Assembly: GCA_030648005.1 (NCBI GenBank)
Contig: JAUSIP010000016.1
Location: forward strand, 1,110 to 65,109
Length of the DNA stretch: 64,000 bases
Direction: 5' to 3'
From: a bacterium
GTDB taxonomy: Bacteria; Patescibacteriota; Minisyncoccia; Phycocordibacterales; UBA12445
In this document: one piece after another, positions 3,001 through 50,149 of the stretch
Numbering within the stretch: the first letter of the stretch is position 1
How the letters are laid out: each line of letters opens with the position of its first letter
Made by a program: the position numbers and the translations under genes
Notes under the pieces: model-generated
Databases searched by the model: none
What the model was told of the DNA's origin: nothing
What the model saw: only the letters and a program-made list of their open reading frames with translations

Positions 3001-4144
3001 TCTTGCATCCGGCAAAACAGCAGATGTTGAATTGACTTATACTGTGGCAGAGTTAGCAACTTCAAATATAGACACCACAACAGAGGTCGGCAAATTAACA
3101 GTCGTATCTTATAGTTCCGATAAGGGAGATTGGGAAACATTAAGTACGGTCGCAACCTACAAAGATTCGGCTGGAGATGTCGTGGCTTCCCCGAATGCTA
3201 ATCTATCTAACGTATCATCAGTCAGCTTCATTGCCTCAGGTACTCACTTCTCAGCATACGCCCTATCTTCTTCTGAGGGTGTATCACCGCCCGATGCGCC
3301 GACAGGAGTGACTGCTACTCCGGCAACAAACGTAGCTAGGGTTACGTTAACGTGGACTGCCTCTCCTGATGCTGAAGGATATTATGTTTACAGAGACACA
3401 TCTGCTGGTGGCACCTTCCCGTTAATTGGAAATCCTGGAAACACAACAAGCTATACCGATAATGCTGTATCAATCTCAACTACCTACCTCTATAAGGTGT
3501 CGGCATTTAAATCTAGTGGCGCTTCGGAATCATCACCTTCATCTGCTGTGAGCGCCACAACTCTTTCTGGCGGAGGTGGCGGAGGCGGAGGAGGAGCTGC
3601 CGCGTCACCTTCACCTGCTCCAGCAGCATCTACACCAGTAGTTGCCACTCCGGCACCTGTTGCGAAGCCAGCTGTTAAAGAGACCATAGGTCTTGCAATC
3701 CCTGTAAGTACTAGTGGTACAAATAGGATAGTTATAGGACATAAATTCTTGAAGGTGCTTAAGATTGGCAATAAGGGCAATGAGGTCAAGGCCCTTCAGG
3801 ATATTCTTGAGGCACAGGGACATCTTAAGATGCCTAAGGGTGTAGCTAAGGGCACCTTCGGCTCATTAACCAAAGAGGCTATTAAGAAGTTCCAGAAAGC
3901 CAATAATATCGCCAAAGAGGGTCAGCCTGGCTTCGGTGATCTTGGACCTAAGACTAGAGCGAAGTTGAATGAGATGGCTGTGGTAGAAACACCAAAAACG
4001 GAGGCAGAACCGGCCAAAGCACCAGAAGCATCTAAGTCAGCATCTGTTATGACTTCGGAGGCTAAAACAGCATTGATCAGCACTCTCTTACAGCAAATTC
4101 AGGCTCTGCAAGAAGTGCTTAAGGGTCTGAAGGCCGGACAATAG
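2..4144 (+). CDS. Giant secreted/cell-surface protein, 5'-truncated by the window edge. It has tandem beta-sandwich (carboxypeptidase-regulatory-like) repeats, an FN3 domain, a Gly/Ala/Pro linker and a C-terminal peptidoglycan-binding domain.
   Basis: Frame 2 is open from nt 2, with no stop before the GTG at 302 used by the ORF track. It contains repeated ~90-aa modules (e.g. SGTVT..DTNGTYTLNVTPGTWRV). It has the FN3-like PDAPTGVTATPATNVARVTLTWTASPDAEGYYVYRD, a GGGGGGGGAAASPSPAPAA linker, and the PG_binding_1-like NEVKALQDILEAQGHL...GTFGSLTKEAIKKFQKAN. Confidence 0.8.
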   Translation, partial: SSSDFSICCVATTSSSNPSVATQNTDINGPGTGTVGIKTITADTLAKTVTLTLDTATRSENSDTHDFLRFTIAGLKNPSIPKGIDSSGYVLDIKSKNASGVLLESFNANPVYIGGGTAGGGSVTTIRGVVSGNGSNLKDVPVHLMSPSTGPQDATTDANGLYQFTNIPVGSQFLSNNFGGGNEYMVFIEPFITGVSDENGATTTNFFGNTMPSPVIATSTSLIGKNFSLTPANTASIAANFTVRLTAAANTFTAAETLDVFAGGPGQFVSRTITPGASALSNSTLTTVPIPKVNGSWGVGISPPMPKGGGFSGPPPSPNWSMPKPIEVKVSGCPSACVTSVSGFATTSNIFTISTADKTISGVLKDGSGNAIASAMVFAFSPSTDAGGGTGNSTQSSTVGAFSIKVVAGTYVVGAYSPGIGESKKVTVVVDSSGNVFVDGNATASTGSSGANPFTLKMVKPDYSITGQVTDGSSAVGNAPVFAYRTDAPGHADAMSDSSTGNYTLYVSNGTWKVSSFIPGFGPMAEQTVTVSGSSQSNINFAPSSSQTFSILSGNIYEDTNRSDTFTAGEGLSGAVIRVSNGTNVNEGVSSTDGAYTVRVPSGTGYKIQDIFSPTYGRIAPIGDSGAAIGTINLTASTTKNIRIPIRGTVSIIIKDSSGNPLTVPKAFIDLFDNTTGLGNHVEIDNGTTTSILMASSTSAYTVKAYIQGIPPANISVASDDAGTTVTSGRITINRATEYIKIVVNTASAGMSTISGTVYKDSATSGNELEGAWIQFVDQTNGVQFGTQSTSSGRYSIKALDGTYQILVSKPQYVATPTTLVVSGATTQNMTMTQSSLTISGTVTSGGVAAASSFVRGEKVGGGQAITQTDTNGTYTLNVTPGTWRVFAAADGYAEAGYASNPLTVSSSQSSINVALSTAASVQSKLATSNTFSDTSAGTFSDTTVNLKVSVDANAFGSAGASSYFTAKETTNYPNTTSVNIVANKAKDISAFSGGSQVTNLASGKTADVELTYTVAELATSNIDTTTEVGKLTVVSYSSDKGDWETLSTVATYKDSAGDVVASPNANLSNVSSVSFIASGTHFSAYALSSSEGVSPPDAPTGVTATPATNVARVTLTWTASPDAEGYYVYRDTSAGGTFPLIGNPGNTTSYTDNAVSISTTYLYKVSAFKSSGASESSPSSAVSATTLSGGGGGGGGGAAASPSPAPAASTPVVATPAPVAKPAVKETIGLAIPVSTSGTNRIVIGHKFLKVLKIGNKGNEVKALQDILEAQGHLKMPKGVAKGTFGSLTKEAIKKFQKANNIAKEGQPGFGDLGPKTRAKLNEMAVVETPKTEAEPAKAPEASKSASVMTSEAKTALISTLLQQIQALQEVLKGLKAGQ

Positions 4145-13450: not shown

Positions 13451-14674
13451 ATGGAGAGGCTTAAACAAAAATTACCCGATTCGCCCGGAGTTTATTTCTT
13501 TAAGAAAGGAAAGGGTATTTTGTATATCGGCCGGGCTACGTCACTTCAAAGCCGTGTTAGAAGTTACTTTAATAAAGAGACGATAAATTCCCGTGGGGCT
13601 TTTATTGCGGGAATGGTTGCAGAAGCTACTTCGCTAGTTTGCAGACAGACTGATTCTGTTCTAGAGGCGATAATTCTGGAGGCGGAACTCATTAAAAAAT
13701 ACCAACCAAGATTTAATTCTAAAGAGAAAGATAATAAGAGTTTTTATTATATTGTCGTCACGGCTGAAAATTTTCCTAGAGTACTCATGGTTCGGGGTAG
13801 GAATTTAGAGATGAAAGATAATGATTTCAAAATTAAGAAACTTTTTGGCCCTTTCCCATCCGGCACAGAATTGAAGGAGGCACTCCGAGTCATCAGGAAA
13901 CTTTTCCCATTCAGAGATAAATGTTTGCCAAATTCAGGGAGATCTTGTTTTAACCGCCAAATAGATCTATGCCCGGGTGTTTGTATTGGAGAGGTATCTC
14001 GTGTTGAGTATAAAAAGCAGACTAAAAAAATAGAACTATTTTTGTCGGGCAAGAAGAAGACTGTGATCAGCTTACTTAAGAAGGAGATGAATATTTTTGC
14101 GAATAAAAGAGAATTTGAAAGAGCCGAAATTACAAAAAGAAAGATCTTTGCACTCGAACATATACAGGATGTAAGCTTGATAAAGAGAGAGTCGGCAATA
14201 TTACCGGATTTTGGCGAAAAAAATAAAATATTCAGAATAGAAGCATATGATATCGCACATCAGAGCGGGACGAATAATGTCGGGGTGATGGTTGTCTTAG
14301 AGAACAATGAACCCAATAAGGAAGAGTATAGGAAGTTTAAAATAAGAGGGGATTATCCATCTGATGATTTGCGATCATTGCGCGAGGTGTTGGAGAGACG
14401 GCTGAATCATCCCGAGTGGCGCTTTCCTGACTTGATAGTCGTCGACGGAGGCAAACTTCAGGTGGCTGTGGCGGAAGATATAATGAAGCGCGATGGTCTG
14501 CTTATTCCAATTGTTGGTGTAGTCAAAGATGAACATCATAGGCCTAAGAATATTTTGGGAGATGTTGAGATAATTAAAAAATATGAAAGAAAAATACTGC
14601 TGGCCAATAATGAGGCGCATAGCTACGCTATCAATTATTTTAGGAAACTAAGTATTAAGAGTATGAAGGGATAG
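13451..14674 (+). CDS. uvrC: Excinuclease ABC subunit C, short form lacking the C-terminal (HhH)2 region
   Basis: It has a GIY-YIG N-terminus (GVYFFKKGKGILYIGRATSLQSRV), a UVR-like helix (KREFERAEITKRKIFALEHI) and an endonuclease domain (RIEAYDIAH). Length is 407 aa. Confidence 0.85.
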   Translation: MERLKQKLPDSPGVYFFKKGKGILYIGRATSLQSRVRSYFNKETINSRGAFIAGMVAEATSLVCRQTDSVLEAIILEAELIKKYQPRFNSKEKDNKSFYYIVVTAENFPRVLMVRGRNLEMKDNDFKIKKLFGPFPSGTELKEALRVIRKLFPFRDKCLPNSGRSCFNRQIDLCPGVCIGEVSRVEYKKQTKKIELFLSGKKKTVISLLKKEMNIFANKREFERAEITKRKIFALEHIQDVSLIKRESAILPDFGEKNKIFRIEAYDIAHQSGTNNVGVMVVLENNEPNKEEYRKFKIRGDYPSDDLRSLREVLERRLNHPEWRFPDLIVVDGGKLQVAVAEDIMKRDGLLIPIVGVVKDEHHRPKNILGDVEIIKKYERKILLANNEAHSYAINYFRKLSIKSMKG

Positions 14675-14752: not shown

Positions 14753-14817
14753 CAAGTCTCTCACAGAAGACACTTAGGTGTCTTCTTCCGCGTCAAAATT
14801 TCACTTCGTTCAATTTG

Positions 14818-14900
14818 TGCCGCGGGAGAGACTTGAACTCTCACGAGGTTGCCCCCGATAGATTTTGAGTCTATTGCGTCTACCATTCCGCCACCGCGGC
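14818..14900 (-). tRNA. tRNA-Leu (anticodon CAA)
   Basis: Acceptor is GCCGCGG/CCGCGGC. Anticodon arm is ATAGA-CTCAAAA-TCTAT. It has a long variable arm and T arm GAGAG-TTCAAGT-CTCTC. Confidence 0.9.
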
Positions 14901-14946
14901 AGCACCAGATAAAATTATCAAACATTTGACAAAAACGCAAATAAGT

Positions 14947-14975
14947 TTGACAGACTTATCTGAGTCTGCTACAAT
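14947..14975 (+). promoter_or_regulatory. Consensus sigma70-type promoter of the smORF operon
   Basis: TTGACA (14947-14952), 17 nt, then TACAAT (14970-14975). Confidence 0.7.
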
Positions 14976-15016
14976 ATGTAAGTAATATTGAACCTTGACT
15001 AAGGAGGGATTTAAAC

Positions 15017-15100
15017 ATGAAGCAAACGAACGTTGCAGCCCTCATTCTTATCCTGATCACCATTGTGGTTATTGCACTTTCTACCATCGTTCGTCGTTAG
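15017..15100 (+). CDS. 27-aa hydrophobic single-TM peptide (MKQTNVAALILILITIVVIALSTIVRR)
   Basis: AAGGAGGG lies 8 nt upstream of the ATG. It sits downstream of a consensus promoter. It was not in the ORF track, being below the size cut-off and masked by the 99-aa TTG-start ORF. Confidence 0.55.
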   Translation: MKQTNVAALILILITIVVIALSTIVRR

Positions 15101-15108
15101 GAGGATAT

Positions 15109-15294
15109 ATGCTTACAGTCTACTGTACTCTAAAATGTCGATTCCTGGACATCAACCACATGCACTGTGTTAAGTGCGGTGAGGTGTGCAGTACGATGTG
15201 CCATCCGGAGTCATGTCCTGCGCCGGTTAAATTGCACTCTGAACCGGAAACGACCAAGGACATAACGAGACTAGCTTTTCTCGAAGGGCTTTAA
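15109..15294 (+). CDS. 61-aa Cys/His-rich small protein (putative metal-binding)
   Basis: An AGGAGG overlapping the smORF1 stop lies 4 nt before the ATG. It has 7 Cys, including CVKCGEVCSTMCHP (C-x2-C-x3-C-x3-C-H-P). Confidence 0.55.
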   Translation: MLTVYCTLKCRFLDINHMHCVKCGEVCSTMCHPESCPAPVKLHSEPETTKDITRLAFLEGL

Positions 15295-15309
15295 TAAGAC
15301 AAGGTGTCT

Positions 15310-15341
15310 GACCCGCGGTATAACTGCGGGTCTTTTTTTTT
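15310..15341 (+). terminator. Rho-independent terminator of the smORF operon
   Basis: GACCCGC-GGTATAACT-GCGGGTC followed by 9 T. Confidence 0.8.
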
Positions 15342-15365
15342 GTATCCAAAAAAGTTTGTGCTAAA

Positions 15366-16379
15366 ATGCAGGGTATGAATCCTGAAGAGAACAGAGAAAG
15401 TAAGAATGGCCTGAGCCATTCGATATTTTGGATCGAGCTGGAGAAGATCAAACCGAATCCTTACCAGCCGAGGCACGAATTCGATCAGGCACAGTTGAAT
15501 GACTTGGCGGAGTCTATTCGTCAGTACGGGGTTCTTCAGCCCCTTGTTGCCACTAGGAAGGAGTTCAAGACAGAAGATGGCGGACTCGGTGTTGAATATG
15601 AGCTAATCGCTGGAGAGAGGCGTCTCCGTGCTTCGAAGATAGCAGGTATATCACAGGTGCCGGTGGTTATCAGGACAGGTGAGCAATCTGATCTTGTTAA
15701 ACTTGAGCTGGCGATAATTGAGAACATTCAAAGAGAGGATTTAAATTCAGTAGATCGAGCGCGCGCCTTCAAACAACTTGTAGATAAATTTAATTTCAAA
15801 CACGCAGAGATAGCCGTTAAGGTTGGTAAGAGCCGAGAATATGTCTCCAACACCATGAGGATTTTAGATTTGCCGGAGGAGATACTTGAGGCGGTGTCGG
15901 CCAAGAAGATTACCGAAGGACACACAAGGCCACTCTTGATGCTTATTGATCGCAAGGAAGAGCAGATGACGCTCTTCAAGGAGATCATGTACAAAAAGCT
16001 TTCAGTTAGGGAGGCAGAAAGCATCGCCAGGAAGATTGCGGTGGAGAAGGTTAGGAAGAAGGATTATGGCGTTGATCCGGAGATCATAGACTTGGAGTCG
16101 AAGCTGACGGAGAAGCTTGGTACTAGAGTTGCGATAGAGAAGAGGGAATTCGGCGGGCGAGTGACTATCGACTTCTTCTCCAAAGAGGACGTTCACAACC
16201 TCCTTAGTCTTATAACTTCAGGCAAGATTGCTGCTCCGGCGGATCTGGCGAAGTTTGCAAATGGAATAGCCTCCAATGCTCCGACCTCAGAGAACGGCGC
16301 GCCGATAGACGATGTGCCAAAAGCGGAGAAAGATATGGACGATCCTGATCTGTATTCTCTAAAAAATTTTAGCGTTTAA
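15366..16379 (+). CDS. parB: Chromosome partitioning protein ParB/Spo0J
   Basis: It has a ParB N-terminal box (IKPNPYQPRHEFD..LAESIRQYGVLQPLVA...GERRLRASKIAG) and an HTH region. Confidence 0.9.
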   Translation: MQGMNPEENRESKNGLSHSIFWIELEKIKPNPYQPRHEFDQAQLNDLAESIRQYGVLQPLVATRKEFKTEDGGLGVEYELIAGERRLRASKIAGISQVPVVIRTGEQSDLVKLELAIIENIQREDLNSVDRARAFKQLVDKFNFKHAEIAVKVGKSREYVSNTMRILDLPEEILEAVSAKKITEGHTRPLLMLIDRKEEQMTLFKEIMYKKLSVREAESIARKIAVEKVRKKDYGVDPEIIDLESKLTEKLGTRVAIEKREFGGRVTIDFFSKEDVHNLLSLITSGKIAAPADLAKFANGIASNAPTSENGAPIDDVPKAEKDMDDPDLYSLKNFSV

Positions 16380-49396: not shown

Positions 49397-49410
49397 TTTG
49401 GCATGAGAAA

Positions 49411-49430
49411 ACCGCCAGAGGTCTGGCGGT
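49411..49430 (-). terminator. Hairpin/terminator of the 49479-49736 gene (CCGCCAG/CTGGCGG motif family)
   Basis: ACCGCCAG-AGGT-CTGGCGGT, with TTTTC following on the minus strand. Confidence 0.55.
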
Positions 49431-49478
49431 TTGGCGGCGGTAAGCAGTAGGTCTGCTTAGTACTTAAAAGAGGAGTGA

Positions 49479-49736
49479 TTAGACGTGCATCCAACCGTTG
49501 TCATCTTCATGGTAAATCCAGCCGAACTTGCCCATCTCACGGACCTCTTCTTCGGACATGTAGAGAACAAACATGTCGAAGTCTCCAACAAAGATACCAG
49601 CCTCGCTGAGGTCTATTTTCTCATCGAGATCAGCGTAGTAATTCTTCAGGATCTGAAGACCACCCAGAACACCATTCTTTTTGCTGGGATCCGATGAGTC
49701 TTCATCAAGAATCTCTACTGCTCGCTTGACGTTCAT
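49479..49736 (-). CDS. Hypothetical small acidic protein (85 aa)
   Basis: It has its own consensus promoter, a GGGAG SD and a terminator. It is Asp/Glu-rich with no recognised motif. Confidence 0.55.
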   Translation of the reverse strand: MNVKRAVEILDEDSSDPSKKNGVLGGLQILKNYYADLDEKIDLSEAGIFVGDFDMFVLYMSEEEVREMGKFGWIYHEDDNGWMHV

Positions 49737-49797
49737 TTTGCTTCTACTCCCGTCTGTTGATTTAGTTGTCGAATAACTCGGCTAATTTCTATCTTCA

Positions 49798-49827
49798 AGT
49801 ATAGCATACTAAATATCAAACTGTCAA
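49798..49827 (-). promoter_or_regulatory. Consensus promoter of the acidic-protein gene
   Basis: The minus strand reads TTGACA (49827-49822), 18 nt, then TATACT (49803-49798). Confidence 0.6.
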
Positions 49828-49900
49828 TAGCAAATACAAAATACCATTATTTTATAAGGGGGATATTTTAATTTTGATTTCAGCAGATTCTATGTGATCA

Positions 49901-50049: not shown

Positions 50050-50061
50050 CTTAACGTTTGA

Positions 50062-50133
50062 TGACCCTACAGAGAATCGAACTCTGATTTAAGCCTTGAG
50101 AAGGCTCCGTCCTAACCGTTAGACGATAGGGCC
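50062..50133 (-). tRNA. tRNA-Glu (anticodon CTC)
   Basis: Acceptor is GGCCCTA/TAGGGTC. D arm is GTCT-AACGGTTA-GGAC. Anticodon arm is GAGCC-TTCTCAA-GGCTT. T arm is CAGAG-TTCGATT-CTCTG. Confidence 0.9.
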
Positions 50134-50149
50134 AAATTGTAAACTAACT

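Follow-up and report, generated by a model that had tools for sequence, protein, structure and literature searches.

A probable two-gene small-protein operon in a variable cassette at the tRNA-Leu(CAA)/parB junction of a patescibacterial genome

What is encoded in the short interval between the leucine tRNA gene tRNA-Leu(CAA) and the gene parB in a genome of the Patescibacteria? The interval lies in a stretch of 64,000 nucleotides (nt) of contig JAUSIP010000016.1 (assembly GCA_030648005.1), referred to below as the window. The element in question occupies positions 14947–15341 and holds two small open reading frames (smORFs), the first of which (smORF1) would specify a single-pass membrane peptide of 27 amino acids (aa) and the second (smORF2) a Cys/His-rich protein of 61 aa. 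Patescibacteria have tiny genomes, are almost entirely uncultured, and their small proteins are largely unannotated. The answer proposed here, which is considered probable, is a genuine, independently transcribed two-gene operon located in a lineage-specific variable cassette, with products acting as an accessory membrane-associated module. As judged by sequence comparison, smORF2 represents a new Cys/His-rich family, extremely narrow in that public data contain only five sequences, and its partner is an orphan membrane peptide.

The cassette begins with a promoter on the plus strand (14947–14975) formed by TTGACA (14947–14952), a spacer of 17 nt and TACAAT (14970–14975), with TG before the −10 hexamer, i.e., (TG)C-TACAAT. 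This promoter ranks first of 24 promoter-like sites in 10 kb. When both strands are counted, the 64-kb window contains only four 11/12 matches, of which it is one (shuffled sequences gave 1.8 ± 1.3). smORF1 (15017–15100, plus strand) encodes MKQTNVAALILILITIVVIALSTIVRR; it starts with ATG at 15017, located 8 nt downstream of the Shine–Dalgarno (SD) sequence AAGGAGGG (15001–15008, plus strand), and ends with TAG at 15098–15100. This stop codon overlaps the AGGAGG (15099–15104, plus strand) that serves as the SD sequence of smORF2 (15109–15294, plus strand), the ATG of which is found at 15109. The intrinsic terminator (15310–15341, plus strand) comprises a 10-pair stem with a 3-nt loop (15310–15332) followed by nine T residues (15333–15341); it folds with −21.5 kcal/mol, far below the energies of shuffled sequences (z = −5.8). 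The promoter, terminator, both SD sequences, both reading frames and the flanks were all located where a preliminary description of this locus had put them, and such signals far exceed chance expectation.

Comparison of related genomes shows how these signals recur. Judged by the relatives of its ParB, the window belongs to the Parcubacteria/Paceibacterota group of the Patescibacteria. Among about 140 related Parcubacteria loci, most have tRNA-Leu(CAA) next to parB, as a rule 40–100 bp apart; in the window the site spans 465 bp. Five cassettes were compared, namely that of the window and those designated L047, L149, L150 and L001, the closest genomes having ParB proteins 80–86% identical. All five contain a perfect TTGACA with a near-consensus −10 hexamer, small transmembrane (TM) open reading frames (ORFs) led by SD sequences, a terminator and then the parB promoter. 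L047 and L150 have the same pairing of a membrane peptide with a Cys-rich protein at this site, and in L149 a 90-aa TM protein takes the place of the peptide; this recurrence agrees with the earlier description of a self-contained operon in which both frames are coding. In L047 and L149 the TM ORF lies immediately 5′ of the Cys-rich gene and its stop codon touches the SD sequence (TAGAGG, TAAGGAG), i.e., the overlap seen in the window is repeated in relatives. In L150 the two genes are separated by a 30-nt gap with AGGAGG.

The protein encoded by smORF2 (P0001) could be connected with a family in several steps. Comparison with the 124-aa protein of L047 (P0002) gives a BLASTP E-value of 9e-6; the two proteins share CT..C.F.D..H.HC..CG, and their Smith–Waterman score is 64 against 25.9 ± 4.8 for composition-preserving shuffles, none of 20000 reaching 64. 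When the 61-aa and 124-aa proteins served as queries in a word-indexed search of 5.8 billion protein clusters, each retrieved only itself. Exhaustive hmmsearch of 1.84 billion representatives with a profile of the two proteins yielded two more members, P0003 (104 aa, E = 6.5e-12) and P0004 (108 aa, E = 1.3e-4); relatives of the 61-aa protein in this collection thus number only three and have lengths of 104–124 aa. P0001 itself is recovered by profiles at 2.3e-13 and 6.6e-16. In addition, L150 carries a 53-aa paralogue that had not been called as a gene (MLSIHCTIKCRFLGEHRHCDKCGE...); it shares 15 of 24 residues with the N-terminus of the smORF2 protein. A profile of all five sequences found no members beyond P0001–P0004 among the 5.8 billion clusters. 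The family occurs only in tRNA-Leu/parB cassettes and always together with small TM ORFs; the P0003 and P0004 genes lie directly 5′ of parB, and their genomes are equally distant from the window (ParB 82–86%).

C6, C10, H17, H19, C20, C23, G24 and H32 are invariant in the five sequences, and C36 is present in four of them, which gives the family signature C-x3-C-x6-H-x-H-C-x2-C-G-x7-H. The window protein has all invariant Cys, His and Gly positions. Between smORF2 and the two L150 paralogues, differences at codon positions 1/2/3 number 8/3/13 and 5/8/14, and many of them are synonymous; the substitution pattern in this frame is therefore not flat. For P0003 the strain pair L149/L151 (one sample, 85.8% nucleotide identity) could be used: the differences are 5/7/41, and the changed codons comprise 36 synonymous and 10 non-synonymous ones (36 and 2, respectively, in parB of the same pair). 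These counts indicate that the Cys/His family is under purifying selection. It evolves much faster than ParB, since the identity within the family is 30–38% against 82–86% for ParB. The codon score of smORF2 is low (−0.03). The N-domains of all members score likewise (−0.06 to −0.10), which argues for a composition effect and not for a lack of coding; synonymous codon usage is uninformative in this genome, where in-frame and off-frame distributions overlap. From the alignment, smORF2 is assigned to a previously undescribed family as a short form comprising the N-domain only.

For smORF1 no homologue could be aligned. Pairwise tests among the TM peptides of all five cassettes revealed no significant similarity, the L001 paralogues excepted, and the weak p-values obtained in these tests are an artefact of shuffling a hydrophobic block. 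Translation of smORF1 is supported by its strong SD sequence (found in only 58 of the 1785 start-to-stop ORFs of 20–80 aa in six frames of the window), by its extreme and continuous hydrophobicity (the highest of these 1785; 19-aa Kyte–Doolittle mean of 3.05, all other short ORFs being below 2.8), by gene-like codon usage (log-likelihood of 0.347 against 0.215 ± 0.115 for real genes, with none of about 6000 off-frame samples as high) and by the presence of small TM ORFs in all four related cassettes. Nearly the whole peptide is a single hydrophobic helix with RR at the C-terminus, and it would insert into the membrane. Two TM ORFs of L149 differ from those of strain L151 by 4/7/18 and 8/4/23 at codon positions 1/2/3, with no indels; this third-position bias argues for coding of the TM-ORF class and, by analogy, of smORF1. 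Both smORF1 and the 53-aa paralogue of L150 are missing from a collection of 15 billion proteins.

No described family was found for either product or for the pair (Rfam, Pfam, NCBIfam, PHROGs, PADLOC and PDB gave no match), in agreement with the preliminary description as far as the pair is concerned. For the products of all cassettes, Pfam, NCBIfam, PHROGs and PADLOC likewise gave nothing above threshold, with the exception of one gene of L149. A literature search on Cys-rich small proteins in Patescibacteria found no paper.

The content of the cassette differs from genome to genome. The L149 cassette contains in addition a gene for a 115-aa protein (3424–3771; PF05005, E = 3.7e-18) of the Janus/Ocnus family, which is known from 14-kDa phosphohistidine phosphatases; the corresponding gene of strain variant L151 is frameshifted (1373–1754). 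The L001 cassette (3432–3901) has no Cys/His protein and contains three SD-led membrane peptides of 44–46 aa, two of which are tandem paralogues sharing VGY.Y..D..C...L.IVWIL (Smith–Waterman 105 against 21.8 ± 4.2). In L002 (ParB 80% identical) the site is empty, as in most other relatives, with a gap of about 40–100 bp. In a ParB-anchored scan of metagenome contigs the closest relative did not exceed 74%, and additional cassettes were not found. At the DNA level, only 14901–14946 of the segment 14901–15365 has similarity in relatives, and this block can be aligned with L047 as well as with the empty L002 site; the window cassette promoter aligns with the parB promoter of L002. A DNA search with the cassette sequence detected only the tRNA-promoter block of about 50 nt and a 64-nt stretch of the Cys-rich N-domain. 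The cassette is accessory and dispensable, variable in content and fast-evolving.

The following scheme of expression could be proposed from these signals. A promoter of the sigma-70 type would start a transcript of about 360 nt near 14982; the preliminary description called the operon strongly expressed, and the near-consensus hexamers do predict constitutive strong transcription from this point. Ribosomes would load at AAGGAGGG and translate the membrane peptide, and the position of its TAG within the AGGAGG of the next ATG would couple translation of smORF2 to that of smORF1. Sequestration of the smORF2 SD sequence by mRNA structure is not indicated as the coupling mechanism, the local fold being no better than that of shuffles. 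The hairpin with its nine T residues would insulate the cassette from parB, itself read from its own, presumably leaderless promoter. The peptide and the Cys/His protein would then act jointly as an accessory, dispensable module associated with the membrane.

An accessory or conflict function is favoured over a housekeeping role only as a guess. The pair could be of the conflict or addiction type, with a membrane-active peptide and a protein partner; this is suggested by the dispensability of the cassette (L002), its evolution faster than that of ParB, the duplication of its components (L150, L001) and the different content in sister genomes. A specific version, in which a constitutively produced membrane-active peptide is checked by, or acts through, a co-translated zinc-binding protein, is speculative and rather improbable. 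If it holds, the fast turnover of content and sequence could be the outcome of an arms race against phages or against the host cells of these episymbionts, and the window copy would be a minimal version consisting of the peptide and the metal-binding domain only.

Several observations weigh against the proposed operon and its function. The smORF2 SD sequence is followed by a short spacing (4 nt between GGAGG and ATG, against 5–9 nt at clear gene starts in this window), which is at the lower edge for this genome. The family consists of five sequences from four or five metagenome-assembled genomes. As an orphan, smORF1 is predicted to be coding from its signals, composition and analogy. The AlphaFold2 model of the 61-aa protein, a hairpin, has low confidence (predicted local distance difference test, pLDDT, of 54). 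PADLOC and PHROGs gave nothing for the conflict-module guess. Finally, a domain of the longer homologues is missing from the window copy, which could therefore be a decaying remnant.

The last point is the basis of the main rival explanation, namely that degeneration of a larger ancestral cassette left the window cassette as a relic and smORF2 as a truncated, possibly chimeric leftover, still transcribed but useless; it appears unlikely. P0002, P0003 and P0004 carry a C-terminal domain with the motif RK..L.ILV..YK.EL...DNN..AI...AT.EEF, modelled by AlphaFold2 as a three-helix bundle (pLDDT 80–88, the highest-confidence part of the model). In the smORF2 protein only scattered residues of this domain are alignable and no helices are predicted. 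Its similarity is also mosaic: the N-terminus resembles the 53-aa copy of L150, and the middle part, MCHPxSCPxP, resembles the 108-aa copy. Such a mosaic points to a deletion or to gene conversion involving tandem paralogues, and is what a deletion between tandem copies is expected to leave. Decay does occur at the site, where content varies and the Ocnus-family gene of L149 is broken in L151. However, the invariant Cys, His and Gly residues, both SD sequences, the consensus promoter and the terminator are all intact in the window. L150 keeps a similar N-domain-only form, likewise without the three-helix domain and with its own AGGAGG, beside a long form, and the differences between smORF2 and its homologues are biased to third codon positions.

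A further explanation concerns the origin of the cassette and is compatible with a functional operon: the cassette could be cargo left by a mobile element integrated at tRNA-Leu. It likewise seems doubtful. The site is a rearrangement hotspot, with the tRNA segment inverted in half of the relatives: tRNA-Leu(CAA) with about 30 nt of its 3′ flank has the opposite orientation in L149 (2215–2330), L150 (1–59) and L001 (3222–3305) relative to the window (14788–14900), L047 and L002. In L150, positions 193–215 are a 23-nt direct copy, with one mismatch, of the tRNA-Leu 3′ end; located 134 nt downstream of the tRNA and just 5′ of the cassette promoter, it resembles an integration scar, no integrase being present. 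The inversions and this copy together mark the junction as a recombination hotspot. The Logan contigs L072 and L150 both break inside tRNA-Leu. The content of the cassette, different in every genome, also fits mobile cargo, as does a 12-nt direct repeat with one mismatch (14938–14949 and 15347) around the window cassette; such a repeat in 521 bp is, by the authors' estimate, near chance expectation. Together with a second TGCTAAAAT −10 element immediately before parB and the alignment of the cassette promoter with the parB promoter of L002, the repeat would also fit an origin of the cassette in which the ancestral parB promoter region was duplicated or received an insertion. Against mobile cargo, no integrase or other mobility gene was found nearby, searches of viral contigs, phage records and plasmids gave no matches, the window cassette abuts the 5′ side of the tRNA and not the 3′ end used by integrases, and the GC content of the cassette equals that of the genome.

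Does smORF1 act alone? It could be a type I toxin under the control of an antisense small RNA, with smORF2 incidental, but this is quite unlikely. The preliminary description had noted a resemblance to type I toxins, and as far as size, hydrophobicity and the basic C-terminus are concerned the resemblance stands: the peptide is shorter than 60 aa, is nearly a single hydrophobic helix ending in RR, and meets the shape criteria of Fozo et al. 2010 (PMC2887945). Like Hok, Ldr, Fst, TisB, Ibs and ShoB, it has one TM helix and a charged C-terminus, and like the loci of these toxins it lies in a variable intergenic site, with tandem paralogous TM peptides in the relative L001 (PMC2887945). The regulatory part of the resemblance is not borne out. 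No minus-strand promoter or terminator was found in or next to 14947–15341, where a consensus scan could miss a weak promoter. In contrast to the tightly repressed mRNAs of type I toxins, this one has a strong, unobstructed SD sequence behind a consensus promoter, the 5′ region folding with only −7 kcal/mol (z = −0.1). Pfam, NCBIfam, PHROG and PADLOC contain no toxin family matching smORF1, and the gene would be co-transcribed and coupled with a conserved protein gene.

Other classes of small membrane proteins could be compared with the pair. Small membrane modulators include KdpF, AcrZ, MgrB, MgtS and CydX. Single-pass membrane modulator peptides have 20–50 aa and their own SD sequences and are often overlooked, as is smORF1 (review PMC12648545). 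Peptides of the KdpF/AcrZ type are usually conserved with, and encoded beside, their target or regulon, whereas the neighbours of smORF1 are a tRNA gene and parB, its sequence is not kept even at about 85% ParB identity, and its only constant partner is the Cys/His-rich protein. In the type V system GhoT/GhoS, a membrane-peptide toxin has a protein partner, GhoS, which is an RNase without a metal site. The cassette is similar to this system in that one bicistronic operon encodes both a small membrane peptide and a small soluble partner, at an accessory locus that varies and evolves fast. It differs in the absence of sequence or fold similarity and in the reversed gene order, the peptide being first here.

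The eight conserved Cys/His residues of the smORF2 family probably bind metal, most likely one or two Zn ions in a zinc-ribbon-like hairpin domain. In the invariant set His and Cys are mixed in knuckle-like pairs (one HC-x2-CG knuckle, C-x3-C and H/C pairs), and AlphaFold2 predicts short hairpins at the Cys knuckles, with pLDDT of only 52–67. The weak best matches, all below threshold, belong to zinc-binding families: rubredoxin-like NF045720, the double zinc ribbon, the eL37 zinc ribbon and the Hrs protein (1dvp). Curated zinc-ribbon and rubredoxin models gave nothing above threshold; the best, NF045720, reached 14–16 bits (cut-off 45), and DZR_2 scored 13 bits on the L150 paralogue (cut-off 27). 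A PDB sequence profile search returned nothing significant (E ≥ 0.07), and Foldseek comparison of the AlphaFold2 models with PDB gave generic helical-bundle matches only (E ≥ 1). The sub-threshold matches are consistent with a zinc-ribbon-like metal site and prove nothing.

The preliminary description had seen in the same protein a near variant of the ferredoxin motif, and seven Cys in 61 residues with the string CVKCGEVCSTMCHP could speak for a small ferredoxin-like iron–sulfur protein. This reading is very unlikely. The actual spacing is C-x2-C-x3-C-x3-C-H-P and not the C-x2-C-x2-C-x3-C-P of the motif; C27 and C31 are each present in only two of five homologues, and both are missing from P0002. 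At E ≤ 10 neither Fer4 nor any other model of Pfam gives a match, and both the invariant His/Cys pairs and the weak zinc-family matches point away from ferredoxins.

The closest likeness to smORF2 is found in the C(P)XCG zinc-finger micro-proteins of archaea (Haloferax volcanii, PMC11241148; Halobacterium Brz, PMC2253796), which are also shorter than 70 aa and Cys-rich. The invariant HC-x2-CG would be the counterpart of their CxxCG knuckle. Both are often missed in annotation, lie in ‘intergenic’ DNA and probably comprise little beyond a metal-binding hairpin. In contrast to the C(P)XCG proteins, smORF2 has a single CxxCG, its first pair is C-x3-C, three invariant His residues are added, its family includes long forms with a three-helix domain and is presumably always co-transcribed with a small membrane peptide, and its host is bacterial (Patescibacteria).

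The last and weakest explanation, that the transcript is a non-coding RNA with accidental ORFs or that the TTG-start ORF of 99 aa (14995–15294, the longest mechanical ORF) is the real gene, can be set aside as most improbable: the fold of the complete 360-nt transcript is somewhat more stable than those of shuffled sequences (z = −2.6), but the excess stability belongs to the terminator, the coding body has z = +0.9, no Rfam family reaches its gathering score (E ≤ 10 gives terminator-like noise only), the cassette DNA is not conserved in relatives, and synonymous-biased protein conservation exists in the 61-aa frame only. The start at 15109, preferred already in the preliminary description, is also that of the homologues, which begin at the equivalent Met with their own SD sequences; the extra 38 codons of the longer ORF share their DNA with smORF1 in a different frame and have a non-coding score (−0.074), and an independent gene call on the Logan assembly of the same organism picked the 61-aa form.

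A two-gene operon is thus the preferred explanation, and the locus provides a clean example of a small-protein operon backed by comparative evidence. If the pair is a toxin–antidote or membrane-regulatory module, it would represent a new type of small-protein system in a lineage with few understood accessory functions. The tRNA-Leu(CAA)/parB junction is marked as a hotspot for cassette turnover and inversion. The family being very narrow, the locus is of modest wider importance.

tRNA-Leu(CAA), at 14817–14900 on the minus strand (ARAGORN; 60.4 bits with Rfam), serves as the left landmark of the insertion site. The conserved spacer 5′ of it (14901–14946, minus strand) probably contains the divergent tRNA-Leu promoter, with TGATAAT on the minus strand. 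The right landmark, parB (15375–16379, plus strand), has its conserved start at ATG 15375 (MNPEE), and Pfam ParB_N, HTH_ParB and ParB_C are on record for it (identical Logan contig). Its promoter region (15347–15367, plus strand) contains the direct repeat copy CAAAAAAGTTTG and then TG-C-TAAAAT, with the −10 hexamer at 15362–15367. This −10 region (15359–15367) ends 7 nt before ATG 15375, and the start of the mechanical ORF, ATG 15366, overlaps the −10 hexamer. The arrangement of TGCTA[A/C]AAT, 7 nt and ATG is kept at parB in four genomes (the window, L047, L001 and L002). Since the −10 hexamer is conserved with the 7-nt gap to ATG 15375, the parB mRNA would be leaderless. A search for parS near parB gave nothing convincing.

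On the other side of the tRNA, 5′ of the cassette, a UvrC homologue (13451–14674) has only 407 aa, and its L149 counterpart, for which Pfam matches to UvrC_M and an RNaseH-like domain are on record, has 406 aa; UvrC of model bacteria has about 600 aa. A second small unit is found in the window beside tRNA-Glu (50060–50134), at 49400–49830 on the minus strand. Its promoter (TTGACA, 18 nt, TATACT with TG) is another of the four 11/12 matches, and it is followed by a GGGAG SD sequence, an acidic ORF of 85 aa (49736..49479) and a terminator composed of a hairpin and T residues.

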